Positions 7,531-54,545 of a DNA stretch of 64,000 bases are shown here, piece after piece (within the stretch, counting starts at the first letter, position 1; the number at the start of each line of letters is the position of its first letter). The position numbers were made by a program, and so were the translations under genes. The notes under the pieces were generated by a model. That model ran no database searches, was not told the DNA's origin, and saw nothing but the letters and a program-made list of their open reading frames with translations. Location of the stretch: positions 10,148,146 through 10,212,145 of the forward strand of contig CAJINV010000002.1 in NCBI GenBank assembly GCA_905178155.1. The letters run 5' to 3'. Source of the DNA: Amoebophrya sp. A120. Its lineage: Eukaryota; Protista; Dinoflagellata.

Positions 7531-8015
7531 ATGAGTGAAATTGTGAACAGATAAGTTCTTCTTGTCGCGCAACGCCCTTTCATCTTTCTACTTTATCTTC
7601 TTCTTCGGCAGTTTGAGAACGAAAGACTCGACAAGCAGAGTTCTCTATATTCATATGCTCTTTCTTGGGGTTCACCATGGGACGAGCAGCGATAGTGTTC
7701 TGATCTTCACAAGCAACAAGCACTTCTCACTTGGGCAAGGCTTTAGAGAGATTCCAAAGTAGAGATGGGAGTGATGAAAGATGCGGGTGCAACAATTGAA
7801 TCTGAATGGGTGATAGTCCGACGATTCTGTACGGTCTTTTTGCGTTGTTATGCGATAAAAGACGTGTCTCGTACTACCCGTTTTTACTAGCAAGTGTTGC
7901 AACGGTCCCGCAGCCTTGTTTCTGCTTAGAGGGTATAGTGGCACTTCAACTCCACCGTAAGTAACTCGGTGCAAAAGAAGGCCTTTCCTTGTCGAACAAA
8001 AAAGCAGAAGAAAAA

Positions 8016-9383: not shown

Positions 9384-9497
9384 ATAATTTTCTACGATTC
9401 TGTGCGGAAAAAAGTAGGACTTCAGTAGAGAACACTTTATTGCGATAAACAAGACATTCCGAGACACATAAAATCTATCACTCACAAAACAGCGAAC

Positions 9498-13496: not shown

Positions 13497-14227
13497 CGAG
13501 TCGCTTTGTAGCCCTACTTGTACTTTCTACTTCTGGTCACAGCGACCTGCGGGACGAGATAGAAATGCTGAGCAGACTCACTGCATGTTGCGTCGATTCG
13601 CGCTCCTTGAGCTGCTTTGGCTGTGCTGAAGAAACATGTACATGGATATTTTCCGGCCCTCGGGCGTTTTCGCTTCGTACTGCGAAAAGATTTTTGCTGA
13701 GTGGCGTTTACAAATGTTACAACGTATATCATGGATGTGTGAGGACCTAGGATGAAACATTTGCTTCTGGATGTAGGAGTCCTGCCTCTGATCCTCGATC
13801 ATACCCCTGTCCGTACTAATGAACATCAGACCGGAAGAACCGCCGTAGCATATCGCATGGATGACAATCATGCTGAAGATGGAAACGAAAGTTTGCTTAG
13901 TGTCGCGTACTTGTGTTCTTTCTTCACATGGCAAATATAGAGAAAGCCGCGTAAAAAGTGGATTCTGCTTCTCACGGTCAAAGCGCAATGCAAAGGCTCT
14001 ACGTACAAGTATACACTCTTGGCACAGGCTGACTAGGCGTCATTTCCAACTACGATGGAAGACTACGAGTTTTTCGATCCGATTATGAATTCGGAAAAAA
14101 CCAAGATTGACGGCTACTTACTTAGTTTGATTTGTTGAAGACCGAAGTTCAGAATTAGAGACACATTTTCCGAACAAAAACTGAACTACATCCACTCTGA
14201 AACTTGAAATCGACACTTGAGCTCTCA

Positions 14228-16042: not shown

Positions 16043-16926
16043 GCGCAACCGCACCTTTACGCTTCTTGGAAAGCCGCGCAACGTCGCGCCACCCTCAGGC
16101 GCAGTTGAAGCGGAGAACAAGTCTTACGATGGGTTGGTGTCTTGCTGCAGGCGACGCTAGCAAGTGTGTCTGTGGGACTGGCAGACGAAATTCGCTAATT
16201 GCGAAAGGCTCGCTATTTCTATTGCGGATGTTGCGACTCATCGTCAAAGAATGGAAAGTATTTGCAATTTCACTGCAGCTTTTATATCCATCCTTTAAGA
16301 CCCATTGATAAAGATGAAACTACACTCGATTTTTAGAGCATTCTATTCTCATTTGCGCGAAACTGACAAGATACTGCTTTTGCTGCTTGTGTCGCATCTG
16401 TGCTCTGCGTCTGCAGCAACCACCGGTTTGGATCTTTCATTCCGATTACGGTTTCGCGTTCCTTGATGACGAAGCTCGACCGCACTTTTTTACCCTTTGT
16501 TTGACATTCGTCTCACTTTACCCTTTGTTTTCTGCCATTTTTTTCAGAGCGATGGCGGGATTAGGTACTGATTAAGTTTTTGCAACGAAGCTGCAGAATT
16601 GCCCCAGTTTCTTACCCAGTGCGAGAGTGACGACAGTTTTTGCAGATGATGGAACGAGAACTAAGCGAAACGTCTTCTCCGTTGTGTCTGAATGTCGTGT
16701 CTGCGTTTCTGTTGCGGAGGGTTTCTTTTCGCATTGATTCGTGACGCAATGGGAGGTGTCCACTCATATTTCCGTGCATTGTGCTGTGAAACGAATCTAG
16801 CAATCTGCAGATAGATTCATTTATCGTCCGAATGCAAAAATTCAGGATAAGATAAATCCACCTTCTTTCCTGTCTGTGTTAATATGGTGATATCATAGAA
16901 GCACCGGGCGTCATCAGCAAGAAAGG

Positions 16927-19900: not shown

Positions 19901-21350
19901 CGCATGGGCTGCTAAGATGCTGAACCCTAACATCCTGTCCATCTCATGGAGCAATATTGAGGCAAAAATAGCAGCATCTATAACGCGCAACAAGAACAAT
20001 CAAGTACCGTTTGTGAATAAAAATTCACAGCCTGGTGTTTGTCTTCATCCCGCTGATTTGCGAGGTCCTCGGGAATACGAAAAATAGTCCGAATTTTGTG
20101 TCGCTGTTCGAGACAGACGAGCCGGGCTACATCGGCAAGAAATCCGAGAAGTACGTGGTTGCCGGCATTTCGTTTCTCTTCGTGGACATTGTGGAATATC
20201 CCACAGAAAAAGACCGACAGGTCATATTTGTAATGCAGAAATAAATACACAGGAAAATCTGTCATGGGCGAAGCCATAACATCCTGTTTAGGGCATGCAA
20301 TACAGATTTTTTTGTCTATTTATTTTTGCATTACAAATATGACCTGTCGGTCTTTTTCTGGGGGATATGGAATGGATCGCAATCACGTACTTCGCCGCGC
20401 GGAGCTGTCAAGGCGGAATCGTCCAGAAATTGCGCTACTTCTACTATTTGCTGGTGAAGGATCCGAAACTATGCAAATGAAAACTACACTCGTTGTTTTC
20501 CTTTTCTCCCTCTGGCTGATTTGCTTTCGGGTGGGTTTTGAACGGCGATTGTCATTTCAGAGGTTGCCTTTCTGCGCTGCGTGTGGCATCATGATATCAA
20601 GGTGCAAAATGTGAGTAGTACCAATCTCAAGTTGTCTTGCACTCGCAGCTACAAAGCTCCGGATTTGTTGCGTTTTGTTGAAGTGTCCCACTATACCAGC
20701 AGGGGAAGAAGGAAATTGTTTGGTTCCATAGGAGACGAGCTATGCGATCATTTCCTACGGCCTGTTCATAGGGCTGTTTGCCGTGCAGTTTAAGTTCAAG
20801 CCGTTCCAGGGCGTGCAGAAGTTGAACTACCCCCACGGCACGGTGCAGGCGGGACAGGACCCGGAGGTGTGGCGCCGGAATTTCGACGGCCAGCTGCGTC
20901 CCTTCGGGTCCGTGGGGGTTTCCGCGGCCGCGGCGGCGGCGTCGAATGGGGCGTACGAGTACGTGCTCCCCATCGGGGACGGGCACAGCCCGGACACCAG
21001 CGTCGGCTGTATGGCTTGCTCAGCTGTTACAATCTCAACTCAAACGTTATAATAGAATCTGGAATTTTTCTTGCATGAACAGCATGAGTACCATACAGAG
21101 ACTTGGGCTTTTCGCAATACAAATTTCGCCAGATTCTGATGGGGTTTGGAGCTCCGAAACTTGTCATGCGCGCTCCAGTGGGAGTAGGCCAGATGTTGCG
21201 GATTTTGCAACACAAATTCCAAATTCTATTGTAACGTTTGAGATTGTAACACCTGAGCGGGTTATAGGCTGGAAACAGATGTTCTACTACTGTTTCGACA
21301 GCGGAAGTTTGGAACCCTGGGAAGACGTGCTAAAGACCCCGATTGTGTGA
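16927..21350 (+). CDS. Large multi-exon polytopic membrane protein, function unknown (possibly more than one gene)
   Basis: Series of GC3-rich hydrophobic exons (e.g. ~18968-19825); two TIR elements whose removal gives DIVEWIAITYF and TSVGWKQMFYYCFD...KTPIV*. Confidence 0.6.
20197..20367. mobile_element. Introner-like TIR element, family H, 171 bp, mostly hairpin
   Basis: TATCCCACAGAAAAAGACCGACAGGTCATATTTGTAATGCA ... TGCATTACAAATATGACCTGTCGGTCTTTTTCTGGGGGATA; direct repeat TGGAA at 20192-20196 and 20368-20372. Confidence 0.93.
21010..21266. mobile_element. Introner-like TIR element, family I, 257 bp
   Basis: TATGGCTTGCTCAGCTGTTACAATCTCAA ... TTGAGATTGTAACACCTGAGCGGGTTATA; direct repeat GGCTG at 21005-21009 and 21267-21271; frame restored. 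Confidence 0.92.
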
Positions 21351-22920
21351 GGTGAAGGAGGGCCATCTCCGATGCTTATTTCTTCAACGAGGTTTGCTAT
21401 CAATATAATTAATGGGGGATGACTGAAAGTGTTTGTTTGTTTGTTTGTTCATATTGGATACACGGAATCCGGGTGAAGGTTTTCTTCTCTCGTGTGATTC
21501 TAGCGCTATTTCAATAAAAATACCAGTTAGATAGAGCATCTTTGAGCTCTTTCTTGAGAAAAACAGAACTGCTTTTACTCTAACCTTCTCGTTTTTTCTA
21601 AAAGATGAAATCGGAGGCGAAAGTCTAAAAATTGAGAACTTGCCTGTTTGTAAAAGTTTAGTGGTAAGCGTCGCTGAGTGAAAGAAAAATGAAAGAGTGA
21701 CAAAGAGCTTGAGCTGGTTTATCAAAGGAAGAGAAAAATAAGCTGTCGCTGTGAAAAGCTGGCTTTGTGAAGAGAAAGCTTCCAGTTAAAGTCATCGAAA
21801 GATCTTGTTGCACTTAGTCGAAAAGTGTAAAAAGGAAGGTTGTGTTTTTTTTTCCATTTTTACTTTTTTGAACTTTTTCGTTGTTGTTCACCTCTTGGTC
21901 TTTTCTTACGCTGCAGTGCTGCGTGAGCCTGTCTTACGCTAGTTAAGAACGAATTCTTACGTGCTTGCTGTGGCTGAGTTTCAGTTTTTTTTTGTCGAGG
22001 AGCTTAGGAAGGAACGAACGGACTGAAAGTGAAATTCAATTTCAATACAGAACAAGTTCGTAGTGTAGGATGTTTTCCATCTAATTTATATGCCGTGATT
22101 GCCCGACGTGAAACAGCTGAAAGGAAGGAGCTATGAACTGCGACAGTTTTGAGGCAAATTCTTGTGCTGCAAAAGCACGACCTACAAATTATGCTTTGAA
22201 AACTACGAAACAGTCATCAATATCCATCGAAACCCAGATTTCTGGGCGATGAGACGAAAAGCTGAAAGGTAAAGGATACAAAGGAAAATATTCGAGAAGT
22301 AAGAGCTGCAGTGACCACGACAAGATTCATTCTATCACATGGAAGACGAGAATCAATTATGTGAGCGCTTGATTGCACCAGTAATCAGTAAGTTGTGTGT
22401 CATAATGATCAGTGACTTGAAGCAAGTTCCGGTAAAGGACAAGTTTCCACGCGTAAAGATGTGCATATGGCAAACAAAGTACAGGTAAGTAGTTTGTCGT
22501 GCGCTTTGTACGATTCACTATGAGATCAAATTCGGTGCAGGCCCCACTACAGTGAAGACGCCTCTTGTTCTTCTTTTTGTACCTCCCCGAGATCCTCCCA
22601 TTTTGCTGAAGCATAATGAAGAGCAGTTTATAATTCGGTGTTCTACCAAATCCAAACAGAATAGCTCTTTCTCTCGTTCGGTTCCCTCGAAGCACGTAGT
22701 CGCTTCTTAAAACGCTGAAACATAATCCTGATCAAATTGGTAGCTTTCTTTTGCTGAGCTGTACCACTCGAAAAATAACCGAGGAAACCTGAAGGTCAAG
22801 CTCACTCAACCCAGTTGGTTTCGCAACGCGTTTTCTTTCGGAATATTTCTCGATCTGGTTTTTCTTGGAGCACCTCTTGATCTGATTTCGGATCACGTTC
22901 TAGAAAGCGGGCAAAAGATC

Positions 22921-23610
22921 ATGTCCAACATTACTGGTTCCGCGAGTTGGACCCCGGCTAGCTCGAGCTCGTTATGAAAGTGCACACTTCTCCGCCTCCC
23001 CGTGATTTGTGTTGCATGAACAGCAATACAAGCGTCAGCAAGAATACAGGTTTTGCATCACAAATTTGGACAGGCGTGTAGTGCTATTTGGGCTGCCAGA
23101 ACTTGTCATGCAAACAGTGCCAAGAGCCCAGGCCAGGCGTAAATTAGGCATTTTGCGCGACAAATGAGGGGGAGGGGGAGTTGTGCACTCTCATACCCGT
23201 CTCCTCCAGCGTACAAACCTGTGCACCAAAAAATGGATACAGCGACGGAGAGCAGCGAAATGATGAGAAACGCGAACAATCTTGAGCCAGTGCCAGCTGC
23301 TAGTGAACGAATTGACCGCGGTACTGGGACTGGAAGGCATGATCCTGGTCGTGTGACGGCTCAAAATACTACATCAACCACAGGCAACTACAGATTCTAC
23401 CCACCCCGCAACACGCTCCGCGGGAAAATATGGGAGTTGCTGGAAATCCGCACACGACAGGAAGAGAGTATGCTTCTGCTCTCTTTCTTCGCCGCCTTTG
23501 TCGGGATAAGCGTTATGATTATCACGACGTATTTCCTGGACGACATGGGGCTCACCGCGGAAGAACACGACTCGCTGAGACAAGAATTGTTCCATTTACA
23601 CCATATCTGA
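22921..23610 (+). CDS. Hypothetical small single-pass membrane protein; exons 22921-22972 and 23201-23610 (3' end may splice further)
   Basis: ATG at 22921 joins in frame to ORF 23164-23610 after element removal (MSNITGSASWTPASSSSSPPAYKPV); TM segment MLLLSFFAAFVGISVMIITTYFL. Confidence 0.65.
22973..23195. mobile_element. Introner-like TIR element, family J, 223 bp
   Basis: TATGAAAGTGCACACTTCTCCGCCTCCCC ... GGGGGAGGGGGAGTTGTGCACTCTCATA; imperfect direct repeat CTCGT (22968-22972) / CCCGT (23196-23200). Confidence 0.85.
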
Positions 23611-24178
23611 TACATACGCAAATCAAAAAAACAATTAGACTGCAGCTGCATGATGCAACCAAAGCCGCTAAGCGACGCCATCTTCAATGCGTTCGGAAAA
23701 AAGCACGATATCGAAGTTCCTGCATCGATCTTAGAAGCAGCTGACAACAGAAAGCTCGATGTTCTGGTTGTTTCTTCCTTGTCGTCCGTGGAGACTGAGA
23801 GGCCTGATGTTTGCAAAGATTTCTCTGAGGCGATACGCCTTTGAAGGAGAGGTGGCCCCACGACGTATGCTTTCGTAGAGAATGAGAGCACGGAGATGAG
23901 CGCCTGTGCGACTGACGAGGTTGGGTTCGCAGAGGCAATGTGGTCACAGAGTCGAGGGAACAACCTCTCTTGCTGGCCTGTACTGAGATTTGACGTGCCG
24001 CGCTTGCAGTCTACAACAGATGTTACCATGGCAGACACTGAAATACAGAACACATCAAACTTGACTTCTCGCCTCGTGTGGTATATATAAATTACCAGTT
24101 TCAAAAATATGAATATCAGAATTGAGCGGGCAAATTGTAATTGCATAATTGACAGAGACAGAGAGCAAAAACTACATC

Positions 24179-27100
24179 ATGCCAGCCTCCGACGGAAGTG
24201 ACTTCACGGTCACTGTGCCGGATGTCAAGGCACAGAAAATCGCAGTGAAAGTTCCGAGCACGGGAGAAAAGTTGCGGCTACAGGTGAGAAGTTCGTTTCT
24301 CATGCAGAAAGATAAAAGTGGGAATGGATGCTTTTTCCTTTTTGGTAGAATCAGAATCAGAACTGCCACGACTTTGCGATTTTTGCGTTTGCACTCTGCG
24401 TCTGTTCAAGCACACTGCAATCTTCTCGTCCGCAGGTCCCAGTCGGGGTTCCCCCGGGTGCGAAGCTCCACCTGGCTATGCGCGACGGTAAGTGGCGGTG
24501 CGTAGCGACCTGGCCCAACACGAGCGATACGGACTTGGAGGTGACGCTGGGCGCGAGCGGGCAGCATGCGGCGCAGAGCTTCGTGCAGCAGGAGATGGTA
24601 ACGGCGACTGCTGGAGGAAGTTCGTCGTCTCCGGAAGACGGAAATAACACGATTTCCGTGGAGTCCATGCACGAACAAACCGCTACGTCGCCGCAAGCAG
24701 CCCCGGAGCAACATCAACCGCCATTCTTAAACAAGCCGGAGAGGTCCGGTACGGTCAGTTCCATGAACTCCGTGAATGAACAGGAATTACGGGAGTGTTT
24801 GGAGAAACAACTCCCACTGACCGTCGTCCAGAATGTGCCGAACGGAACCACCGCCCCGCGTTGCAGCGCCGCGATCATTGGGGCCGAAAGTGTGTTTCCT
24901 GTGGACCCAGCTGGAGCTGGAGTATCAAATGCAAAAATGTCTGGGTCTGAAAGATTGCGAGATTTGTCATGCTTGTCTGGCATGACTCGAGGCTCTGTGT
25001 TGCATAGGCACGAAAAGGACCTCTTACCTGTTGCGCAAAAACGCCGTTTGCCATGCGGAATACGTAAGACATGGCAGCCAAAAAATTTGTCATGCATAGC
25101 TGCGTATTGCAGTGCGTCTATGATTCACTTTCAGCATTACAAGTTTCCAGACCCAGACATATTTGCAATCCATATGGAGCGGAACAGAACGACGCGACGC
25201 TGATCTTCCAGGACGCAAGCGAACAGGAGATGGGGCCGGAAGAGGAAGAAGATGCTGGTCGTGCTGCTGTCGGAGAACATTCTTCCAGCTCTGGAGGTGA
25301 CTCGGTGTCGCAGGAGAACCAGGCGTGCGAGATTCTGGCGCAACTGTACGGAGACTGCAGCAACGAGATTGTTTCCTCCATTGTCGAGCAGGAACAGCAG
25401 AACTACGTGCACAACCGCGCGCGGGACTCTATCGCGACGATAGAAAATACGTCCAGCAGCCCGATGGCGTTTATTCACCCACCTCTTCCGGCTGGAGGGC
25501 AACTTTTACAACCGGGAGCAAGTGGTCAAACGACGATTTTGACGCAGCAGTTGCAGCAGCAAATAGCACACCAGCAGCAACTGCTGAGCCAGACGAACAG
25601 CTCCACGGAGGGACTGCCGAAGACCAGCTCGGCTTCCTCCCCCTCGCCCTTTGAGAACAAAATCGAGGCGTATGCAAATTTGACCGACAAACTGAGTCAG
25701 AAGTACCAGCAATCGAAGCAGAACCGGATGAGCATTTTGGATCGGAAGAACGCGAGTGTCGCGAACACGCTGCAGTCGCAGTTGCGGGAACTGGAGGCGC
25801 TGCAGAGAAAAGTGCAGGAAAAGCGGTTTCTGTTTAGCAGTCCGAAAGAGATGAGCGCGGAGGAGAAAAGCTTTCATCAACAGGAACTGCAGCAGCACCA
25901 ACAACCTTCCGCGGAGGATTTCGGGTTGGACTCCTATCGTTCGCTTTCACAACCCAGAACACATCAGAATAGTGCGGTGGCCGCTCCACCCGCGCAGGAA
26001 CACCAGCAGCAGGTCGTGCAAGGCAAGCCTATTTGGACGTCGACGGGCACCAAAACTTTTCCGCCGAGTATGCTGCCGAACTACATGCAGGACCAATTTT
26101 TAAGCTCGGGCCCCTCATTTGGGGCACAACCACACCAGCTGCCGGCGCCTGCATTTTTAGTTCCTCATTTACACCAGGCTAACGCCAACCCAAATGGGGA
26201 AGGTGAAGCAAACCAAATAAGCACGACTTTTCCGCCGGCCGAGGAAGATGATTTTGCCGCGATGAAAAAGCTCCCGAACCTTTCCTCCACCAGCACGGCA
26301 ATCACAACCGCGGACAATAGCAAGCGGCCGACGCCGACGTCCCAAGTCAATTCCAGTTTGATGCTGAGCTCGGTGTGCGGGGTTGGGCAGCTGAATATGA
26401 TGAACGAGTTCAATAAGGGCAGTAGTAAAATCCACGGCAGTTGTGGTAGCGGTCTTTTTGGATTCAGTAGCAACGCCACCACGCCGATCCAACAAGAGGA
26501 CCCAGCAGCGGCGGCGAGAAGTGCCAGCTGCGCGACCCGGTTGGGACAAGACGCGGCAATGGAACGATTTCAGCGCTGCCGGGGACAGGTTCTCAAAGTC
26601 TTGCTGTTGTGCTGGTTTTCTTTTCGGCACACACGAGGTAGGCATCGCTTTTGACTACTTAATTTCAAAATCGAAACGTATCGATACAACTATGCTTTAA
26701 ATCTCCTCACTAGGTTGCACAGCCAGCTCCGCAAAAGCTAATGGAGCAGCAAAGTTTCGTGCCCGCGCAGCCCCCGCAGTTTGTTGTGCAGCAGACCCAA
26801 CTGCAGCAAGCACCCGTGTTTCACCAGCCACAGGTCCCAGAGCAACAGCAACAAAAGTTTTTTTTTCCCGCCGCCCCGGCGCCGTCCACCGTTTTGCCAG
26901 AGCAGGAAAGAAAAATGTTCGTGCAGGCCAGCGGACAGCACCAAAAGACGCCACCGCTGAACTTTGACCAGATGGTTGAATCGCAGCAGCCCGCCGCCGC
27001 GCCGGAAGCATATCTGCACACGGCGCCAGAAGCGAACTTTGCGAACATGGCAGTCGAGTCTATCAAGTCGTTAAAAGCGCCGATGATCCGATTTGCGAGT

Positions 27101-30100
27101 CCACTGAAAACCAGAGCACCGCCGCCACGAATGGTATGTGATAAAGTACTTTCATCCAATCTTCGTTGTTCTCACTTGTGGTAGTGTACTGCTTGATCTA
27201 GACCGTTATTTTTCGTTGTGCTGCTTTTCGTTTAGTAGTCATACTCAAAATCGATAAGGATCGATCGGAACTACACTCTTGAAAGCAAAAGTCATTTCCT
27301 GCTCCTTGCAGATCGACGAGTCCCAACAGAAGCAGTTTCCCACGGTGGAGCAGCAGCTATCAAACGGAAAAATCCCCCCTCCCCATATCGAAGTGGAAAT
27401 CTGTGATGCAGGATTTGAGTTACCAAATCGACTTGTAATGCTAGAAGGCCAAGAGCCGCAGTCGTGGTCTCGTCTGCAGGCAATTTGTCATGCTGTTTCC
27501 CACTCTCAGCTGCCTCCTATCATGCTGAAGATGCAAGGCTCCCCCACGCCACCCAGCACTACAGTCCGCATCTTTTCCCGTGTAGCATGACAAAGCTGAT
27601 TTGTGACAACAAATCTGCATCACAGATTTCCGTTTTGATATGGGGAGGGGGGATTTTTCCTTTTGATAGCAGCAGGTGACGAACATCCCGGTGCACATGG
27701 CCGCCATGATGCACGCGTGTGACATATCCTGAGGAAAAACGTCCCCACACCAGAGTCAAGATGGGGATTCTGCAACACAAACCTGAAAGTTTTGGGAGCC
27801 ACGCATGACAAGTTGCAGGCTGTAGTGTAATGCAGGTTCTTAGCAAGGGAAGCCGCATAAGAAATCCATCTCCTCATCCTGTTGACAGCATTACAACTTC
27901 CAAAACACGATGGGAAATGTCTCCCATGGGGATGCGCATCACAAATGCTCTTGTGCTTGCAGATCTGCATGACAACTCTGGGGTGGGCATGTTTTTGCAC
28001 AGGATATGACAACCATCGGCTCTTCAAGCAGAAGCCCAAAAAGATCGGGACCCGGATTCTCGGCGGAGACGAGAATTATTACGGTCAGAAAGTCCGCTAT
28101 GGGAGTGTCAGGATCGAAATCGTCAAAGTTGAAACAATCTGCAATGCAAGAAAGCGATGCCAGCTGGCGCCCAGTTTGCAAGTGGCGCATGACAAATTTT
28201 GGCAGCATGGAAATCCAATTTGTCGCGCTGTTTGAGCAGAGAAGACTGCTTTTTTCATGCTATTTTAGCAGCTCTATCTCACAATCCAAACAGGCTTATA
28301 ATCGGCCTCAGTTGCGTGCTCTGCAAGACAGGCACTTTGCGTCTAGCATTTTATATATGCATCACAAACTAGTTCAACTTTGACGATTTCAATCCTGACG
28401 CTTCCATATCCGCGACTTGGTGGACGAGGTCGAGCTGACGCAGGACGGCGCGGCCATCTCGGAAAACGTGAAATCTCTGCGGAAACAATTGAAGGCCGCA
28501 ACGGGAATCGGCATGACAGAAGCAAGGGCACGCTCCCGGTCCACAACCCCGCACCAGCTGATTGGGGCAGGTTCTGGCCCGGCGCTCAGCTGTCCGGTGG
28601 GGTGCTTCATGCCAAACTTCGGCGGTGCCACTGGTGACGGCGAAACGGAGACGGGGAGCAATTATGGACCGCAAATGCTGCTGATGCCGCCCACAACGTC
28701 GATGTTTACAAACGGTGTGAATCCGCAGTCGTTACTCCCAAAAACCAAGCGAAGTCTAACGCCGCCGGCTTTGACAGTACATACTTTCTCCTGAAGATGT
28801 TGAACAAATATTTGCCGACTTTGAACAATAAAGTCGTCTAGCCAACATACTAGACCTAGAAATGTCACAACCAATGCTTCACATTTTTGCTGGCGTTTTT
28901 TAACAACAGCAGAAATAGAGCCTATGTATACTTACTCAAATAACGTAGTTCTGCCGCGATCTGGCCAGGGGCAACAACGCAGCTGCCCGTGGCGCTTCCG
29001 CGCGAATTTCCGGCAGCGCCGTGACCGTACAGACCGTCATGGACCAGCAGAACCAAAATAACTCCGCCGTCCAGCGCGGCCGCTCGCGGTCCGGGCAACA
29101 GAACCCCTTCCTGGCCGGCCAGATGCAGACCCGTGGAAGAGATCACAGTGGGCGAAGCAACGTAAACGTCGACGCCTCGGCCTTGCTGGGAAGATCGATG
29201 GAAGACATCTTCGAGTCCTCTTTTCTCGAAAACGGTGACTTGGAACTTTTGCCGGACTGCACCAGTACGGTCAAGGAATTTAACCCAGACTTTTTCACGA
29301 CCTGGTCCGAACAGATCCCGCTACCCGAGGATTTACAGCAGGAGCAGCAGAAGCTGATCGAGCAGCACTTTCTGAAAAGGCAGGAACAGCTGAAACTGAA
29401 AAAATTGAGGAGCGACGTGATCGCGGAAATCGAGCCCATTAAGGACCAGCACGTTCCGGACCTGATGGCCTCAAAAATCGCAAGGGTGCCAAACGTGGCG
29501 CAAGCGTTCTCAAAGAGGTAAAGAAGTTTACAATGACAGAATTAAAGTTTTACACTTGCGCCGCACTGAAAGTGTTGCTCCGATGTAGAAGTGAGTAGAA
29601 AACACTTGTGTCTCATCCGCAATTATCTCGTTGATGACGCATTATACCTATCAATCTAAGCACACCTTTACGTCCCTCGCACAAAATACTCTTTCAGGAT
29701 GGCCCGAACTCCGCGGGGTTGCTTGAACCGAGCAGCAAGCCAGCCGATGATGGCCCGCCAACTCCCGGAACTTGTCCATCCCTTGGTCGCACCGCCCGCG
29801 CCGCAGCAAGTGTCATTGGCCTCCCACATCCAAGACCACTTCAAGTAGAAAGTTTTGCGTCCTCGTTCTAAGTGATGTTGAGGTTTGTGGTTGATTCTGA
29901 GGATTCCGATTTGTAGGAGGAGCGCCAGAGCTTTCTTGCATATTGATTCATTGACATTGGGGCCTGGCGACATGATTGTTGTTCCTGTATGTTATCATTT
30001 TGCATCAAGATGATCACGTTCACAACAGGTCGGTCTACCGTACAGATTGGTACCAGACGCCGAACATTCAACCGGTGAGGGGCATTCCCGAGGCGATCAG

Positions 30101-43200: not shown

Positions 43201-44027
43201 AGGCGCTGCGGTTCAACCTATGGATTGCAAAAATGTCTGGGTCTGGAAGAGTCGGGACTTGTCATGCACATTTTGCATGACCCGTGAGGTCTGTGATGCT
43301 GGTGCTAGCATCACAGATTTTTTGAGAGCTTCTTGATGCTAATTACGCATGAGAAATTCCCTCTTCGCGTGCCAAGAACTGACTCCTCTTGCTGCTCATG
43401 CAACACAGATATTTTGAGAATCCGCAGACAGCATTACAAGCTGCATTCTTCCATACCCAGACATTTTTACATTTGATACAACCAGGACCTGTCCAATTGG
43501 GACGTTTCCTCGGTGGAAACGATGAAGGCCATGTTCATGGCCGCGGAGAAGTTCGACCAGAAAGTCAGCTCCTACAGCTGGGACGTGAGCTATCAAAAGT
43601 AAAAATGTCTGGGTCTGGGAACTGGTGATGCTGGGTAGCGTCTCAGGATGAGGCTACAAATGCTGGCTCAGCATGACAAGTTTCTGAGCTCCTAGGCGTT
43701 GCCTATTGTGCATGACACACTGCGCTTCTGCATCACAGAAAAGCGGAGCTTTTGGGTAACGTGCATGACAGATTTAAGAGTCATGCCAGACAAACATGAA
43801 TTCTTCCAGACCCAGACATTTTTACATTTGATATGAGCCGGGTGCAAACGATGCAGTACATGTTCAACGACGCGTACGCCTTCCACGACGGGGACCTGCT
43901 GGAGCAGTGGGAGCCCCACTTTCTGCGCCTCTTCGGAAACTGCACCCAGAAGGCGATCGGGGACGTCTTCCACGGCTCCAAGATCTACTGGACCCGCATT
44001 CAGTTTCTCACCGTCGGCCACGCCTGA
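40247..44027 (+). CDS. Protein with C-terminal DUF285/BspA-type surface repeats, interrupted by four TIR elements
   Basis: Reconstructed repeats FNCDISGWDTSSAVDMHCMF, FNRPLNDWDVSKVVDMAGMF, FNQDLSNWDVSSVETMKAMF, WDVSRVQTMQYMF. Confidence 0.85.
42269..42479. mobile_element. Introner-like TIR element, family E, 211 bp
   Basis: TATCGCAAGAAAAAGGTGTTACAGTTACACA ... TGTGTAACTGTATCACTTTTTTCTCGTGATA; imperfect direct repeat AATCC (42264-42268) / AGTCC (42480-42484); frame restored to KEFESRAEL. Confidence 0.9.
42821..43152. mobile_element. Introner-like TIR element, family B, 332 bp
   Basis: TATCAAAAGGAAAAATCCCCCCTCCCCATA ... TATGGGGAGGGGGGATTTTTCTTCTTGATA; imperfect direct repeat ACGAT (42816-42820) / ACGAC (43153-43157); frame restored to PLNDWDVS. 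Confidence 0.92.
43219..43478. mobile_element. Introner-like TIR element, family A, 260 bp
   Basis: TATGGATTGCAAAAATGTCTGGGTCTGGAAGA ... ACCCAGACATTTTTACATTTGATA; direct repeat CAACC at 43214-43218 and 43479-43483; restores FNQDLSNW. Confidence 0.95.
43591..43833. mobile_element. Introner-like TIR element, family A, 243 bp
   Basis: TATCAAAAGTAAAAATGTCTGGGTCTGG ... CCAGACCCAGACATTTTTACATTTGATA; direct repeat TGAGC at 43586-43590 and 43834-43838; restores WDVSRVQTM. Confidence 0.95.
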
Positions 44028-44936
44028 GCCCGGGGGTCGTCGTCGTGTGCAGGAGCAGGCTACAAGTTTATATGCGCTATCCTTTTATCAAGCTATTTTT
44101 CTCTGTTGTCTACCTTGTTTCGATCATCGTTTCCGTTGTAAATCTTCCATGATGTCTGTTAGTTGAAGTTCCTGCTTCTGCTGAGAGGCAGCTTCTCGTC
44201 GTGCCCGTCAACTCGGAATAGATATGCATGCCTGGAGCATGTTTAAGCCCGTGCGTACGGTTTTTTTTTCTTTCACGAAGCTGCGCGAACATATTTCAAA
44301 ACAGCGCTCAATGTGCATAATAAAGCACCCAGCAGACCAGTTGCGTTCTTTCGTTTCTGTTCTTGAGTTGGGGGGTCTCTGTTGCTTGTCAGTCTCCACG
44401 ACACTTTTACGACGGGTGCGCAAATCTAGCGAGAGTGTCGAGCGAAGATTAGCGTCCAGCTCCAGAAGTGCTGCTGCGCGTGCGACAGGGCAGGTTTCTG
44501 AGTCGATTTTGCGATAGTGGTGAGCGAGCATATTAATTTGGATCCCAGTGAGGGTCGCTTACAGAATACACATGATCAGTGAGGGAGAATAGAAGATAAG
44601 TACCAAACTGTATGACTGTGAAAGATCATTTCAAGAACGTCTCCATCGCGAATCTAGCTTTGATGAATGCTCGCCACTGGCAATCGAAAAAATGTCAGTG
44701 GCCCCCGAATTTCTTTCGTCCAGTCGAGGACCGAAGCGCCGGTCAGGTCTGCCGCCCGACCGGGTAGTTGGCTGTCGGATGGTTGCTTGCGGAAGACAGT
44801 AGAACTACTTTACTTTCTCCAACCGTAAGGATGCGGTGCGAGGCAGCGAAACCACTATCCGCACCAGAACAGCCTTTCCTAGTTGCACCCTAGTCGCGTC
44901 CGCAGCCGCTCCCGCCGGAGAGACGTACGGAACAGC

Positions 44937-47900
44937 ATGGGGAATGCGGCGGCGCAAGCGAACCGCACCGCCAGCGCGGCGGCCAAGAAAATGCTGGCGC
45001 CGGAGCTGGTCCAGGCGCTCGAGGAGAATGCCAACGATTTAAACTACTGGAACGGTCTGTGGCAGGGTGTGGAGGACCGGCGGTCGGAATTCTTCGATCT
45101 CCAGCTGCTCGAAGAGGGGGTCATGAAACTCCTGGAACACAAGTACCACTCGCCTGAGCTGGAGTGGCGCGTGACGGGCGTGGCCATCGCGCGTACCTTT
45201 TTCCCGTACGAGCTGGCCCGAAAGAAGCTGATCCGGGCGGATTTTGTCTCCGCCGTGCTGATTCTGACCATGGAAACCACCAGCGACACGGTCAGCCAGC
45301 AGAAGGTCGACGAGCTGCAGATTTTCGCGGCAAAGCTGTTCTGCGAGATGGCGGACTACCAGGACTTCGAGCCCGACCTGTGCAGCGGGTCGGTGCTGAA
45401 CTTTCTCTGCATCGTGTTGAACCAGCTGGAGGAGGCGGAGCAGCTGGTCACGCTCACCTTCAAGAAGCTCTCCCGCCGCACCGAGAACCTGATCATCCTG
45501 ATGGAGGGCTCGGTGGGCGACATTCTGGAGTCCTACTTCAAATTGTCGTTTGCGCAACTGGAAAAGGAAACCGAGGCGGACGTGGCCGCGGACCAGTCCA
45601 AGGCCTTCGCCAACTGCGCCTTCACGCTCGGACAGTTTTTGAAGTTCGGTTTCGAAATGCAACTCGACTACGACATCGTGCTTTCCCTGATGCAGGCCGC
45701 CGTGTACCACGACGCCGGCCGGCAGGGCGAGCTGGACACCATGTTGGCCTACTGGGTCTCCGAAAAGCTGATGGCGGAGTGTGTGCGGCTGTTCTACTGG
45801 CACTGCCGCAATTCCACGCGGGGCATCGTGGACATCATCGAGGAGGCCGCGCCAGACCGACAATTGGGCACGGGGATACAAATACTCGTATTTGATTTAT
45901 ACTTTTTTATCGATTTGCATTTGATTTCATCTGAAGAACTGCTTCTTGAGCGGGCACCTTTTCCCGCACAGAAGTGCCACGCGGTCTTGTGCCTCCGGAG
46001 TTTCGTCCGCACGGTACTTGTTACAGTTGTGATTACAGTGTGGCTGTGCGTTCTAGCTCAGACATGCATTTACGTACAGAGGTGTTTCCTCTGCTACTCT
46101 TCTTCGTGCACTTTTTCGGGATGTTATCATTGTCACAGGTGTCCTACTGGCGACAGCACTGCATTCCGTCGTTCGAGATGCTGCGGGACTTCGACAAGCT
46201 TCCTGCGGCCCAGAAGCAGCAGCTCATCAAGAAAGAGGATGGGGAATCAGAACAGGCGCAGCGCAAAGAGGTGGTGTGCAACATGAACATCCTGTTTTGG
46301 ATCCTGATCCCCGACTCGCAGCTCCGCTGGTTGATGAAGCGAAACTCGCTGGAGCGCCAGGACTTGATATTTGAGCTGCTTTACATCGAACCACCTCCCA
46401 TGGTTAAACTTGAGATCAAAGACAACCCGTCCGCATCGTCGAGTGCGAGTGCGGATACAGGGGGCGGTGGGGAACCAACGACTGCCATAGCAGCAGCGGC
46501 CACGGTATGCTGTTTTGCAGTAGGTGGGTGCCATGCATCAACGGGTTTTTGTAAAAATTAGGCAAGAAATGACGAAAAAGCCTGCGTTGATTTGTGCACC
46601 AGCTTGTTGACTTAATCACAGTGGAGACAGAACGACAGTGAAGTATCAAAACTTGAAAACAGCGCGTGGTTACCGTCGTAGACCACCTCGCTCTTTTTAA
46701 CACGAGTCTGTGCGACCGCACGCTTCGAACCGCCAAATTTGTCCTCGACAGTTCGGAATGCGAGCCGCTGGCACGCAGGCTGGCGGAGCGGCTGCTGCAG
46801 ATGTTTGTCTATTTAGTCGACAAGCACGCAGAGTTGTCCGCCGTCGTGAAGCCAAAATTAGAATCCGGGACTACTGGTGCCTCCTCCAGCAGTAGAGGAG
46901 GGCAGCAGCAACAGGACCCGAGCGCTCTCGGCGAAGGGGCGGCGGCAGCTGGGTCGCAGCAGCAACCGGGCGGTGCAGCAGCCTCGGCGCGCTCCGCCTC
47001 TGCGGCATCTTCCCGAGCCAGTGGTTCGGCAAGAGATCCACTTCAACCCGGCGGACCACTGGCGTCAAAGGAGAAGAAGGGGCCGAAGAGAATCAACTTG
47101 GACAAGTACGCGCGGTTTCCGATCACTGTCTGCGACCAGCTGTTGGAGTCCATTTCGTTGGCCGCCTTCCGGCGCGACGTGTGCGCGTCATTCGCACAGC
47201 AAGATTTGTTCGCGAAGCTGTGTTACTTCCAGGATGTGATCATCGAAGCGAATTTTAATCCTGGCGCGCTGAGGGCGAAGACTGGCCTCGGGTCCATCGG
47301 CCGCTCGCTGCTCGCGAGCACGCGGCTGATGACGCTGCTCGCCAGCCACCCGGGGCACCGGCTGCCTTGGTGTGTGGCCTCGGAGTCGGTGGGGGGCGAA
47401 AACAATCACTACCCGCCCCCGGAAGACTTTGACCGCACCGTGGACAAGCTGGCGGACTATCGAACGCGGCTGAAGCAGCTCGCGAGCCAGGACCAGGCGA
47501 CCGACAGCGCCGGGGGTGGTGGGAGTACTAGTAGCAAGCCCGCGAAGGCCCGTCAGCTCACGCCGGCGCAGGTCCGGGAGGAAGCTTTTGGGAACAATTT
47601 GGACACGATCCTGACCTTGACCCGCTCGGCGATCCTCCAGAAGGACACGCTTTTCGGTGCGTTCACGGGTGAGATCATCGAGAAATTCCTCGGCATCCTG
47701 CACTGGTGGCGAGAAAACTCCAGTCTCCGCTACGCGGAGGAAAAGGAGCTGATCGCGACGGGAGGCGAGCAGAGCAACGAGGACGGCACCACCGGGCTGA
47801 ACGTGTACGACGTGGACCACGTTTTGGCGGACTTCTTCGGCAAACGCAATCTGATGGCCGCGGAAGATCCCACCGAGGCGGACGATATGCTGGAAAAGAT

Positions 47901-50328
47901 GCAGCGCGTCTCCGTGCAGACGCTGCAAAATCGGTTTATCGATGGCAAGCACGTCCCCGCGCCCACCGTGCAGGACAGCTTCCGGTTCACGAGCGTGTTC
48001 GAATCGCTCTTGATTCTGCAACTGCTCTCCCGGCTGGTGTTGGAGCCGAGGTGGAAGCGCATCTTTCTCTTCGAGCCGCGGTACCACGCCATCATACCCA
48101 ACAGCCTGCACGGCACGAATTTCGTGCGGTTGCTCCTCTGCGCTGTCGCCACGGCCACGTGGCCCGAGGCCCGCGAGGCTGCGGCGACGCTCGCGAACCT
48201 GTGCTGGATGGGCGACATGCGGTGCGAGCGCCTGTTCTGCTGGCTGAAGTTCGACTCTCCCACCAACGTCGGCGTGGACAGTAGCGGGGTGTTGAATCCA
48301 CTCACCATTGGCCAGCCGCGGCCACTGGAGCTCGGCCGGGGCATGTACCGGCGGTCGTGGGGCACGGAGTTCGTTGAGGGCTCGGCGATCATATATGCAT
48401 TGCAAAAATGTCTGGGTCTGGAAACTTCTCATGCTAAAAGTGAATGGGAGACGCACTGCAATACGCAGCTATGCATGACAAATTTTTTGGCTCCCATGTC
48501 TTACGTATTCCGCATGGCAAACTGCGCTTTTGCATGACAGGTAAGAGGGCCCCCTCTTCGTGCCTATGCAACACAGATTCTCGAGTCATGCCAGACAAAC
48601 ATGACAAACTTGCATTCTTCCAGACCCAGACATTTTTGCATTTGATATCATACTGCACCCCACCACGGTGTCGCCCACGAAAATTCCCGCGGCCCTAACG
48701 TCGGCCAGCCCCGGGTCTACCTTTACGAACTCAAACGGCAGCTTTGGAACGCTCCTCCAGGCGAACCTGAAAACGGCGCACCTGGCCAACCGGCACTGGA
48801 CCCTGCACTGCTGGTTCTACTGGGACCCGGTGGACATGCTGCGCGACGCCGGCCCGCCGCAGGGTGCGGACGACGGTCCGGAGGAAGCGGGTGGTGCAGC
48901 CACAACGGCGCAGGGAGGTAGTAATCCTGGTGGCGCAACTACTACAACCACTGCAGGCAATTATCTTCTGACCATGGTGCTGCTCCAAACGCACCCGAAG
49001 CAACACCAGACGCTGATAAAATTTGCGATCGCGAAAGAATCCACCGGGTTGCAAACGTCGAGCAGCTTCTTTGGGTTCGGGTCCTCCCGCGCTGGCAACC
49101 AGCAGCCCGAGCAGCAGTACCAGCTGAAAATCGTTCTGAAAGACGTCCGCGGGGGCGAGCAAGTGGTCGATGTGCAGCCGAAATTGACGCAAGGGTGGCA
49201 CCGATTTGCGCTGGTGTCCTCTATATGGATTGCAAAAGTGTCTGGGTCTGGAAGATTGCAACTTGTCATGCTAAATCCGAATCATGCAAAAATGAAAATC
49301 TGTGTTGCATGGGTGCCAAAAGCTGTCCACTTTCGACCAAGTTGGGAGGGAGTTTCCCATGCAGGATAGGCATGATAGAGACCCCACAGACTCTGTCATG
49401 CTAGGTCCCGCATTCCAGACCTCAAGGGTCATGGAAAACCTGCATGTCAAGATTACACTCTTCCAGACCCAGACATATTTGCAATCCATACTCTACCCCC
49501 GACGCGTACGCGAACGCGTACAACGGGTGCACGATCTACATCGACGATTGGACGCAAAAATTGTCGCCGCAGACGTTTCTGCGCAACGACTTTTATCTGC
49601 TGGGGAACGACACCGCGGGACAGGAGCCGTTTGGCGGACTGGCCGATTTCCGGATCTACGCGCGCACCCTGAAGGAAGCGGAGTTGGAACTTCTGCTGCA
49701 TCCGCCGCTGTTCGGAAGTAAAACCGAGAAGTCCATCGCGGTCGACAGCCGAGGGAAGCAACCGCAGCCGGAGCTGGATCCACCGAAGGGCGTGCCGACC
49801 GATGTGCCTGCGGAGAACTACTTTCCCGACCAGATTGTGCGGATGTTGCGGGACTGCGGCAGCGTGAAAATTCTCGCCAGCCGGCTGAACGTCGCGGACA
49901 CTGCGGCCGAATGCTTACGGGTGTTGTATCAAATGCAAAAATGTCTGGGTCTGGAAGAATGGGCGACTTGTCATGCAGCTTTTCCATGAGCCATGAGGTC
50001 TGTAATGCAGGACCTAGCATGACATATTCTGTGCGATCTCTCTCATGCCTATCCTGCATGAGAAACTCCCTCCCGACTTGGTCAAAACTGGACGACTTTT
50101 GGTAATCATTCAACACAGACTTTTGCATGCTTCAGATTTAGCATGACAGGTTGCATTCTTCCAGACCCAGACATTTTTCCGTTTGATATGTTGGGCACGC
50201 TCGCGACGTTGCAAGAAGCGCGGAGCGAGATCTTCGGTATCTGTGGACCGAAAATCCTCGAGCTCAGCGAGTCCCCCCTGCCCATGATAAAACGCCAAGC
50301 TGCTCGGGTTCTTCACAATTTGAGATGA
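44937..50328 (+). CDS. Large protein: probable N-myristoylation, helical (ARM-like) region, C-terminal concanavalin A/LamG-like domain
   Basis: Starts MGNAAA; GT-AG introns 45888-46138 and 46505-46662 in phase 0; three TIR elements; LamG-like motifs WTLHCWF, WHRFALV, TIYIDD, LLGN, FGGLADFRIYARTLKEAEL. Confidence 0.75.
48394..48647. mobile_element. Introner-like TIR element, family A (A2, inverted relative to 24923-25174), 254 bp
   Basis: TATGCATTGCAAAAATGTCTGGGTCTGGAA ... TTCCAGACCCAGACATTTTTGCATTTGATA; direct repeat TCATA at 48389-48393 and 48648-48652; restores SAIILHPTTVSPT. Confidence 0.95.
49224..49490. mobile_element. Introner-like TIR element, family A (A1, same orientation as 261-522), 267 bp
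   Basis: TATGGATTGCAAAAGTGTCTGGGTCTGGAAGA ... TCTTCCAGACCCAGACATATTTGCAATCCATA; direct repeat CTCTA at 49219-49223 and 49491-49495; restores LVSSTPDAY. Confidence 0.95.
49927..50188. mobile_element. Introner-like TIR element, family A (A1, inverted relative to 261-522), 262 bp
   Basis: TATCAAATGCAAAAATGTCTGGGTCTGGAAGA ... CCAGACCCAGACATTTTTCCGTTTGATA; direct repeat TGTTG at 49922-49926 and 50189-50193; restores LRVLGTLATL. Confidence 0.95.
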
Positions 50329-51606
50329 TCATGATTGTAAATGATCACGTCGTGCGCGGAAACCGATGCTCCTTTCTGCCATCCCTTAGTTAGTATGTTT
50401 TCTTTTCCGCATGAAACGCTGCGCGCATGGGCATGATATTTTTCACTTCACACTTTCACAGCAAGAATTTAGATATTTATACAAAAATACGAATCATTGG
50501 ATCAAGCAGATCAAGACTAGGTGTTTCCATTCGCTCAACGCTTGAATACTTCAAACAAAAATCCAGATATACTTCGCTAGATCAGAAAGTCTTCTATTGG
50601 TATTGCCTTGCTTGATCGAAATAAAATAACACTCACTCACAGAAATGGAAGTAAAAAGCACAGAAAAATGGCTTCGATAAACTTTGGATGCACCATCGAG
50701 ACTCCGTGTAATTAACATTTGGCGCAACTAACAAGTTCCAACTGCAAAACTTGTGCGGATAAGAATGAAAATTCAGATCTTCAGCCGGCGATCCTTCACA
50801 ATCGGCTTATTGCGGGTCCCAGCATACGACGGATTCTTGTTCTTTTCCAATGTCTGACGACTCCGATCATTCAAGGTGTAGATTCTCAACGTCGCTGGGA
50901 TCTACTTCCTGGAAAGAACAAGATTGAATTTAGTTTTAGTGGAAATCGGAATACTAGAAGCTAAAATAAACCCCTATACTGTGATGTTGACGCCAGGCAC
51001 CAAGAGATGCAGAGACATCAAGATTCCTCGCAAACATGTACGATGATTTAAGGTGGACCTGTATCCTCAAATGAAACTCATTGTCATGCTCCTCTAGAGG
51101 CAAATTGCGGAAAACGAAAAGCCACGACCGCGACCGATTGCGCCCCGGACCTAGTTGTTGCGCCTGCTCTGCCCGACGCGGAGAGATCAACATCCAGACG
51201 AGGAGAGCAAAAAAAGCGACAAGGATAATGTGTGTGGCTACGGGACCGAAAGCGAATCTGAGCTTTGTTTAGCACCAGGCGATCGACCTCAAAAACAACG
51301 AAGCAAGTCGGCGAAAGATATTCAATCGTCAGCAGTAGAGTACTAGGAAGCAAGTTTTCATTCTCAACAGCCGGCGCAATTCTCGAAATATCTTCGCCAA
51401 GCTTGTCCGCCGACTTCCGTCGTCCAAGCAGTAGCAGCAGAAGTGCAGTTCTTGCGGTTCGACAAATTGATCCCGCGCTACTGCGAGCAAGCTAAACTTG
51501 AGTACTTGCGACGTGTCTCTCACCAGTGTAACAAGTAGTCACCCGCCTAGTAGACGAAGAACGCTCCTCCTAGTAGCCCCCCGCGACGACGACGACCAAG
51601 TCCAAG

Positions 51607-54545
51607 ATGTCTCCGCCCCTCGCTCCCCCCCACAACATCCACCTGTTCGAGTCGATATGCATTGCAAAAGCATCGTACTCGTATAAATGCATTACAAATT
51701 TCCTCAGCATGAGAAATATAATTTGTGATGCAGATTTGCCTTGGAAACAAGATTTGTATTGCAAGACTTGCATTTGTACGAGTACGATACTTTCGCACAG
51801 GATAGTCGAGCTACAAGGTCGACTACGACGATGTGGATGTGAAAATCACAAGTGTGATATCCTAAGGAAAAACATCCCCACCCCAAAGTCAAGATGGGGA
51901 TTTTGCAACACAAACCTGGAAGTTTTGGGAGCCACGCATGACAAATTGCAGGCTGTATTGTAGTGCAGTTTAGCAAGGGAAGTCGCATTACAAATCCAGC
52001 TGCTTTATGCAGTTTACAGCATTACAAGTCCGAAACACGATTGGAAATGCCTATCATGGTGATGCGCATTACAAATGCTCTTGTGCTTGCAGATCTGCAT
52101 GACAAGAACTCATAGGTGGGGATGTCTTTACACAGGATATGTGAACGACAAGACGATCACGTTCACGCTCGAGGGCTGCGACACCAGCACGGCCAACGCG
52201 CTGCGCAGGATACTGATGGCGGAAATCTACACCATGGCAATAGATCTGGTCACCATCTACGAAAACAATTCGGTCCTGTTCGACGAATTCATAGCGCACC
52301 GGCTCGGCCTGATCCCGCTCGAGTCCAACGGGATCGGCGACATCCTCTCCGACCACGGCGAGGAGCGAAAACGGATCACACAAAAAATACACAACAGCAT
52401 GAATCTGAGTATTCAAATGTTAAATTGATTCAGACCTTTGTCCTTCATTCGATTACGTTTATGTCGTTGCTTTGCATTAATCCAAGTACCATGGAATGGT
52501 CGTGTTCCGGCAATTATGCACTTTCTGACATGTCATGGTTAACGCCTGCGTCTTTACAACCATCACTTCAAAACACGACAATGAGCCGCGCACCTGAAAC
52601 ATAAAGATGAAAATATTAAAAACAGCTGCAGAACAGAAAGCCTTTGAGAGCGCGCGTAACGATCTCGGGATTACTTATGCGGTTGCATCCATCGATGACC
52701 CAAGCAGGGGCGGTTGTGACTGCAGCGGTGGGTGCCCAAGGTGTGAAGTGAAGTTTGAGATCGACGTGGAGAATTTTTCGGGGCACCCGATGGACGTCAC
52801 GCACTTCGACCTGAAACTGGTGCACAATCCTGCAGAGGACGAGACAAGCCTCAGACCGTATAGAGAAGACATTTAACTGTTCGCGTTCAACCTCAGACCG
52901 TTTTGGAGATATGTTCACCTGTTCCCTAACACAGTAAATGAGATTTGTTTGAAGTGTTCTTTGCATCTTTTTTCGGCATTACGAACAACCGTCAAGGAGT
53001 GTGGAAAGAGACCTGATGCTTATTTACAGAAAAAATTGATTTCAAAACAGCCAGCGGGCATTCCAAGTCCTTCCAATGCCGCAAAGGGATCCCCTCTACA
53101 GTGAAGAAGATGACAGAAAAAGAAACGGTAAGTCGTACAATTTTTTTGCACCTACCACTTCATGTGCAATGACAAAGCAGCGGTTTTTTTGATAGATGAG
53201 TGTTACGCCCAGCTTCAACACAAAGCTCCTTGAATTCCCTATCTTACCAAAAACTACAGGCATCAAAATCGTGAAGCTCCAACACGGGCAGAAGTTGAAG
53301 CTGGAAGCCACGGCCATCAAGAATAACGCCAAATTCCACGCCAAGCACAATCCAACAGGGACAGTGTGTATGAAGCAGGACGCCGACGTCAGAATAAATG
53401 AGAACACAAAGGTATAGAGCTTTGTTTCATTTTTTCACGACGGCGCGCGATCCAAGTTCGTGATCGTGGAAAAATAAATGAATTAAGTACAGCGATGGAA
53501 TGAACCAACTAGATGCGCTGTAGAGTAAGTAGTTCGCCATAACCGTGAGGGCGAAGTGTGGGGTTGTATGAAGAGTTTCAAAAGCCGAAAATTCTCTCAC
53601 AGTTCCACCCTACTCTGGAGCAGAAGCGCGACATTGCAAAGTCCTGCCCGCAAGGGGTCTTCGACTTGGAAGATATGGGAAAATTGGTTGTCGCTAACGA
53701 GGACCGGTGTATCCACTGCGACAGTTGCACGGACTACTGTACAGAAAACAACATAAAAGGCTACGTCACGATTGACCACCACCCCAGGAGGTTCCATTTC
53801 GAGGTCGAATCCACGGGCGCGAAGCATCCCGCTGCCATAGTCAAAGCAGGTACTTAGTGTGTTTTTTAGAAGAAAATACTATCCACGACGAAGATCTAGA
53901 TCATTTCGATTTTTTCTTCTGCAAGAACTTTTATTCGTTCTCGTCGTAGAAAGCGGTCTAATTGATATAAGTAGTAATTTGCAAGAGGAAGAACAATCCG
54001 ACTCAAACCTCCACAGGCCTGCGCATCTGGAAGGACAAGCTTTTCCACTTCAAGAGGGACATCAAGCGCCTTCATTCAGACATTGCGGATCTTGGTACCG
54101 AGGGTATGCCATTAGGCTTCGCCATTATGGACCAGAGTGCGCAGGGCGGATCGGCACGAGGCGACGAAAATATGTCCTCTCAAGGAATGGAATTCACTTC
54201 GATGGGCACAGCATCGCAGGGCACCGGCGCTCCAATAAACGTCTCTCAGGCTCCCTCCGTCGTCGAGAGCAGCGCGCACAGGCAGAGGGTTCGCCCACGA
54301 TTTGGACCGCCGGGGAGCGCTGGCATGGAGAGCGAGTATTTTGATTTGATTTTTTAATTAATATGAAAATTTATTAACCTTCGTGCATTTTCTCAATACC
54401 AATACTTAGACTTACAAGACACCACATGTCGTTTTCATTCGATGAAAGAACATATGCAGAATACGAAAAAAAAATCGAATTGACTAACAGCGCGGGCTCC
54501 CAGGCTATGGACATCGACGACGACGTCGACGACGACGAGATTTAA
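51607..54545 (+). CDS. RPB3: RNA polymerase II subunit RPB3; two TIR elements plus several GT-AG introns
   Basis: FTLEGCDTSTANALRRILMAEIYTMAIDLV, NNSVLFDEFIAHRLGLIPL, Zn loop CDCSGGCPRC, IVKLQHGQKL, HAKHNP, FHFEVESTGA; some internal junctions and the last exon inferred. Confidence 0.9.
51656..51804. mobile_element. Introner-like TIR element, family F, 149 bp
   Basis: TATGCATTGCAAAAGCATCGTACTCGTATAAATGCA ... TGCATTTGTACGAGTACGATACTTTCGCACAGGATA; direct repeat GTCGA at 51651-51655 and 51805-51809; restores LFESSYKVDY. Confidence 0.92.
51858..52139. mobile_element. Introner-like TIR element, family C, 282 bp
   Basis: TATCCTAAGGAAAAACATCCCCACC ... GGTGGGGATGTCTTTACACAGGATA; direct repeat TGTGA at 51853-51857 and 52140-52144; restores KITSVNDKTITF. 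Confidence 0.95.

Follow-up and report, generated by a model that had tools for sequence, protein, structure and literature searches.

Two families of introners in Amoebophrya sp. A120 are each removed in both orientations from transcript-like contigs: family A in the copies at 49224-49490 and 49927-50188, and family B in those at 24923-25174 and 48394-48647. This indifference to orientation is likely due to the mirror-image ends of the elements: the same splice signals would be read from either direction, which places the signals needed for removal in the inverted ends. One decayed copy suggests that the cut lies at N-UAU, a start similar to the GUAY of the host's canonical introns. The analysis was carried out on a window of 64,000 nt of contig CAJINV010000002.1, and all positions are coordinates of this window.

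Introner families and their orientation

Comparison of the window with itself, together with a motif scan, revealed a repeat type with inverted ends that is present in eight copies, each flanked by a perfect 5-bp duplication (8/8), and the element borders proposed in the initial annotation coincide exactly with their TAT...ATA ends. When the window was scanned for TAT...ATA with at least 20 of 30 end positions paired and a perfect 5-bp duplication, 16 elements were found, and 0 in each of 20 shuffles. A wider scan brought the number to 20 elements of several families, with a total length of 5189 bp, and 16 of these 20 have a perfect 5-bp duplication. The elements have TIRs of approximately 30 nt and a target duplication of fixed length, are short and occur in either orientation, which are the features of a MITE or non-autonomous TIR DNA transposon. 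The repeats of A120 introners were described by Farhat et al. 2021 (PMC7789003) as TAT, seven variable nucleotides and at least three A, with direct repeats of 3-5 nt. The left ends of 17 of the 20 elements fit TAT + 7 nt + AAA, among them all five copies of the initial annotation, and the elements share with the published introners the direct repeat (here 5 bp), the non-canonical borders, the removal and the repetition, seen as families within the window. The elements at 28098-28408 and 21010-21266 do not have the AAA required by the published consensus and are removed nevertheless (28098 in a listed joint, 21010 as inferred).

The copies 49224-49490 and 49927-50188 had been proposed to belong to one subfamily, in opposite orientation and about 440 bp apart, and the alignments bear this out. 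The first matches the reverse complement of the second at 222 of 269 positions (82.5%), versus 176/290 (61%) on the same strand, and the two are separated by 436 bp inside a single + strand gene. Both have 28/30 end pairing; the duplication is CTCTA for 49224-49490 (49219-49223 and 49491-49495) and TGTTG for 49927-50188 (49922-49926 and 50189-50193). The orientation call is independent of the inverted ends, because the interiors of the two copies, with 45 nt taken off each end, give a local score of 214 in opposite orientation versus 21 on the same strand (1000 shuffles: mean 15.6, maximum 27). Interior self-comparison found self-complementarity above 40 in no element. For two further pairs, 49927-50188 with 261-522 and 48394-48647 (duplication TCATA) with 24923-25174, the proposed reverse-complement relation holds as to orientation but not as to identity, the matches being 241/262 (92%) and 229/255 (90%), so that the copies are 82-92% alike across the pairs.

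In the window, family A has two copies in orientation 1 (261 and 49224) and three in orientation 2 (49927 and the related elements 7173-7439 and 43219-43478), and family B has one in orientation 1 (24923) and two in orientation 2 (48394 and the related 43591-43833). These counts refer to the window only; six metagenome-contig loci with the same families, where the host strand is not fixed, were left out. The longest frames over the eight copies lie on the + strand, and likewise all ten GT-AG introns seen.

Several side observations concern the anatomy of the elements. In 49224-49490, 24923-25174 and 43219-43478, the outermost 10 bases are of two types (TATCAAATG and TATGGATTG), independent of the internal family. 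The second type occupies both ends of 49224, in contrast to the first type in the related copies 261 and 49927, a hint that ends may have been exchanged. Inside the elements at 27358-27668 and 20197-20367 sit further TAT...ATA elements (27386-27640 and 20225-20339) that have inverted repeats but no duplication of their own, as though newer outer ends had been placed around an older element; both outer elements are removed whole in the joints listed. A second family of about 150 bp, related to 51656-51804, forms an opposite-orientation pair within 380 bp at L004:1076-1225 and L004:1604-1757, where the host strand is not fixed.

Host genes and reading frame

The gene that hosts 48394, 49224 and 49927 extends from 44937 to 50328 on the + strand and encodes 1394 aa. 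In addition to the three introners it has two GT-AG introns, at 45888-46138 and 46505-46662. No Pfam family was found in the four of its exons scanned, and exon 46666-48387 matched one relative, the gene model P0001, labelled Amoebophrya sp. A120. When the two GT-AG introns and the three elements, each with one duplication, are taken out, the resulting protein of 1394 aa is identical to P0001 at all positions. Similarly, the neighbouring gene minus four elements, two of which are 43219-43478 and 43591-43833, gives a protein identical to P0002 (904 aa). Keeping any one of the three elements in the host gene stops the frame early, after 623, 814 or 930 codons versus 954.

The element at 261-522 lies inside a + strand gene for a protein arginine methyltransferase, which also holds, at 5-200, a further element truncated by the start of the window, of which the 3' part is left. 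Once 261-522 is removed together with five bases, the arginine methyltransferase domain reads through without a break and scores 186 bits with a profile of 38 homologues; with three bases fewer or more, the score falls to 180 and 177 bits, and with the element alone removed, a stop follows after 18 codons. The initial annotation had stated that all elements restore the frame, which is correct if one 5-bp duplication leaves as well (259, 272 and 267 nt for 48394, 49224 and 49927) and incorrect for the element alone. Toward the end of a long exon at 7968-9332, Pfam detects a histone fold (Histone, CENP-T_C).

Removal of both orientations from transcript-like contigs

Eleven runs came into question, and none of those that contain the sequence is recorded as RNA. 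Transcripts were represented by four runs, X3-X6, from one sample of one study. These have no recorded library type and are RNA-like by behaviour: the contig sets drop 10 GT-AG introns and hence behave as spliced RNA. As all RNA evidence consists of assembled contigs of one sample, perhaps not independent of the assembly, it reports the presence of a spliced form and not its efficiency. In a raw-read run, X9, four reads matched, all of them partially.

Contig 10 of X3 (2913 nt) covers 46982-48387, 48647-49218, 49491-49921 and 50189-50692 with 0 other letters and 0 gaps. It skips 259, 272 and 267 nt, which correspond to the elements 48394, 49224 and 49927 plus five bases each, and a second X3 contig skips the two GT-AG introns of the same gene. 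In the stretch 9100-29000, eight GT-AG joints and seven element joints, among 15 of 21 joints listed, were present in all four runs, and each element joint removes the element plus five bases. One of these is 24917>25175, by which 257 nt containing 24923-25174 are removed in 4/4 runs of the one sample. Altogether, 14 of the 20 elements lie in stretches that were compared with the runs: ten are removed in listed joins, one (21010) is skipped as judged by depth arithmetic only, and three are in a gene uncovered in X3. To the latter belong 43219-43478 and 43591-43833, whose flanks are without cover in X3 and which are removed in the public model P0002. Both orientations are therefore absent from the transcript-like contigs, contrary to what would be seen if only one of them were removed.

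Position of the cut

A perfect duplication leaves the cut ambiguous among six registers. A GT/GC-AG register is available in only one of the 20 elements, 21010 (GC-AG), and in none of the registers of the other 19; 48394, 49224, 49927 and 24923 are thus without GT/GC-AG borders in any register. The decayed introner at 20470-20730 is informative here. It has 15/30 end pairing, its duplication has decayed to GAAAC / GGAGA, and its joint 20468>20735, present in 4/4 runs, has no repeat ambiguity. The intron removed is 20469-20734, which fits one of the six registers and puts the cuts 1 nt upstream of the left TAT and 4 nt downstream of the right ATA. The joint 22969>23198 of the introner 22973-23195, which has one mismatch in its duplication, is compatible with four of six registers, including the one fixed by 20470. 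P0002 cannot fix the register, because both of its duplication mismatches are synonymous. The fixed register comes from a single junction in a decayed copy that ends in AG, and this copy could be an exception.

In the fixed register, the introns of the host gene are predicted at 48393-48651, 49223-49494 and 49926-50192. An intron in this register starts with N-UAU, and eight of the ten canonical introns in the window start with GTAY. The dinucleotide N-T in 20/20 elements is given by construction, as the scan required TAT. The flanking dinucleotides vary freely, and the first and last intron bases are free. According to Table S4 of PMC7789003, the nine leading non-canonical motifs of A120 are GT-AC, CT-AG, AT-AG, GT-CG, GT-AA, CT-AC, AT-AT, AT-AC and TT-AG, with T at +2 in 9/9 and A at -2 in 8/9, a tally that depends on how the authors placed the junctions within the repeats. 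In the same table, the motifs of strain A25, whose repeats start with TTA, start with TT in 9/9, and the Fig. 3 legend of that paper gives the position as variable. The canonical GT-AG intron at 12651-12845 has an introner-like 3' end plus four bases (TTTGATA-ACAG); it is possibly an old introner turned canonical, or possibly a chance likeness.

Recognition of the ends and mechanism of removal

The initial annotation had explained removal in both orientations by symmetric recognition, through a stem of the inverted repeats or by excision from DNA. An end-to-end stem is indeed predicted in both orientations in all 16 elements folded, with a mean pairing of 0.65-0.96 over 30 nt, and both orientations are removed. 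A motif scan found no shared internal motif and no strong internal branch-point motif; CTRAY occurs in the last 50 nt of 1/20 elements, but also in 0/10 canonical introns, so this is a weak test. Symmetry as such is not required. On the sense strand, opposite-orientation partners are alike at 26-29 of the first 30 and 24-27 of the last 30 nucleotides, and since the inverted ends present nearly the same polar signals either way round, recognition need not be symmetric. Moreover, the one unambiguous junction is asymmetric about its element (1 nt before, 4 nt after). The part of the proposal that concerned DNA is disfavoured by the genomic contigs discussed below.

The mechanism we favour, with an even chance, is that a U2-type spliceosome of relaxed specificity takes the MITE-like introners of A120 out of the pre-mRNA by reading signals in their inverted ends. 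The element would be inserted in either orientation by a DNA transposase or integrase, which would also make the duplication. Owing to the inverted ends, both orientations would give a transcript with N-UAU at the 5' end and U-rich...AUA-NNNN at the 3' end. At the 5' splice site, UAU would stand at +2 to +4, as it does in the host's canonical GUAY, and splicing would have lost its need for a G at +1 and a terminal AG. The end-to-end stem would join the ends and set the 3' cut by distance, and the original coding sequence would be restored from four exon bases on the left duplication plus one on the right. All these steps beyond the exact loss of the element plus five bases are what we infer.

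The relaxed spliceosome is favoured because the likeness to GUAY is found in both strains, A120 and A25, because the copy with 15/30 end pairing is still removed and ends in AG, and because there is a precedent for TIR-derived non-canonical introns in Fritillaria. It is also favoured by the near-complete spliceosome of A120, in which, according to PMC7789003, 83 of 89 spliceosomal proteins plus U2, U4 and U6 were found despite an undetected U1, and by the repeat layout, which the same paper reports for 15% of the canonical A120 introns. Against it, the predicted stem would bury the sites with which U6 and U2 must pair, a GT/GC-AG register and CTRAY are each found in 1/20 elements only, the first and last bases are free, and U1 was not detected in A120. 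The TAT may also have been conserved for the transposase alone.

The same data can be read, with a lower but still appreciable probability, as the work of a non-spliceosomal RNA machinery guided by structure, as proposed for the nonconventional introns of Euglena, which would recognise the end-to-end stem, cut at fixed distances from its base and release a circle. All families share the stem and the terminal TAT/ATA, with inner repeat sequences that differ, and the stem prediction in both orientations of all 16 folded elements and the free flanking dinucleotides would suit such a machinery. Nonconventional introns of Euglena are described as leaving as circles and needing terminal pairing (PMC12501133; PMC11282704). 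The weak pairing of 20470-20730, which is nevertheless removed, speaks against this reading, as does the fixed register, in which positions +4 to +6 do not read CDG, the Euglena signature (+4 is T in 20/20). In addition, Euglena is described as having few hybrid introns, in contrast to the 15% of canonical A120 introns with the repeat layout, and no back-joints were seen among the 15 of 21 joints listed, which is a weak test.

Leaving the enzyme unspecified, a wider statement can be made, which we hold tentatively, at slightly under even confidence. Tens of thousands of Amoebophrya introns would be removed without a first G or a final AG: the transposon end would give only UAU at +2 to +4, the 3' cut would be measured by an RNA stem as four bases beyond the element, and insertions would be erased from mRNA wherever they land and whichever way round they lie, via a U1-less spliceosome or an undescribed RNA cut-and-join enzyme.

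It is improbable that the spliceosome instead depends on internal branch points or enhancers specific to each orientation, with both orientations functional at unequal efficiency. Introners of other algae are biased to one orientation (bioRxiv 10.1101/2020.10.14.339549), and efficiency is not visible in contigs; against this, both orientations are common in the window (2 versus 3 copies in family A, 1 versus 2 in family B) and no shared internal motif was found.

Excision at the DNA level before or during expression, comparable to that of the internal eliminated sequences (IES) of ciliates or to precise transposon excision, would be consistent with the ends and duplications of a transposon, and would yield an identical joined sequence at perfect duplications. 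Ciliate IES are absent from the DNA of the expressed genome, and no germline-soma split is known in Amoebophrya. The X1 contigs, with a depth of 41-46, cross each exon-element border unbroken (43809-48418, 48622-49252, 49464-49951 and 50151 onward), which argues against a common empty allele in this sample. X1, the only genomic-type sample compared, holds introns and intergenic DNA; it is one sample, with other life stages unseen, and contigs drop rare forms. The joints listed in the same comparison (15 of 335) belong to other element copies and do not bear on empty sites in X1. Furthermore, what remains at the joint 20468>20735 is four bases from the left duplication and a single base from the right, whereas a cut at the element ends would leave five from one copy. 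We therefore regard excision from DNA as very improbable.

Just as improbable is that the elements stay in the cell's RNA and the joins are falsitrons, produced when the reverse transcriptase switches template across a hairpin flanked by direct repeats, a known slippage substrate; falsitrons can reach up to 70% of cDNA reads (PMC8240250). The anatomy of the elements is the same and X3-X6 have no recorded library type, but retention would truncate the host frame, the conserved methyltransferase domain needs the removal of 261-522, and at the junction 20468>20735 direct repeats are absent and the stem is weak. Slippage may still inflate the apparent removal efficiency.

Comparison with known systems

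These results bear on the removal of the introns without GT-AG, which make up 65% of the introns of Amoebophrya. Were the cut fixed at N-UAU, the spliceosome would have relaxed both of its most conserved nucleotide rules, and a transposon would be nearly harmless at any coding position. Copies with decayed duplications offer a cheap way to map, across the genome, the real position of the cut, a point that the original study did not settle. The introner class and both gene models (P0001 and P0002) are already public. No statement on the orientation or the excision products of Amoebophrya introners was found in the text of the open-licence literature searched.

The closest system is that of the A120 introners themselves (PMC7789003). 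The organism is the same, P0001 and P0002 are identical to the spliced products, the borders are non-canonical, the families are many, and a hairpin that joins the exons was proposed. The available text of that study leaves orientation undiscussed and the cut position open, and the fixed register and the likeness to GUAY are added here. A120 introners are reported to derive from several transposon classes, and TIR elements with LTR-integrase-like homology are described in A120 (PMC12130899). The symmetrical fungal introns described in PMC8469720 are without duplications and are a different case.

The nonconventional introns of Euglena (PMC12501133; PMC11282704) are alike in terminal base pairing (predicted here), direct repeats at the junctions, non-canonical borders and a likely MITE origin. 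In contrast to them, the elements described here are without the signature N3CDG / CH'GN5-6|R, and circles have been shown in Euglena. The non-canonical introns of Fritillaria borealis (bioRxiv 10.1101/2025.08.15.670264; PMC11282704) resemble them in being derived from MITEs, with splice sites in the inverted repeats and duplications at the borders. In Fritillaria, the need for a U2-type spliceosome was shown and AG-AC/AG-AT borders dominate, whereas here a role of the spliceosome is proposed and only the U at +2 appears fixed.

Introners in either orientation have been described with canonical-type sites in Aureococcus and several Polarella classes (bioRxiv 10.1101/2020.10.14.339549; PMC10228655), and a survey of introners with such sites allowed for opposite-orientation copies (PMC9860276). 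The introners of Aureococcus and Polarella glacialis depend on particular target sequences, because their GT/GC/GA and AG sites are either carried by the element or recruited (Roy et al., bioRxiv 10.1101/2020.10.14.339549), whereas 19 of the 20 elements described here are without a GT/GC-AG register and their targets look free. Two-way introners with canonical sites are thus known from other algae, and what is added here is two-way removal without GT-AG, together with a testable cut position.
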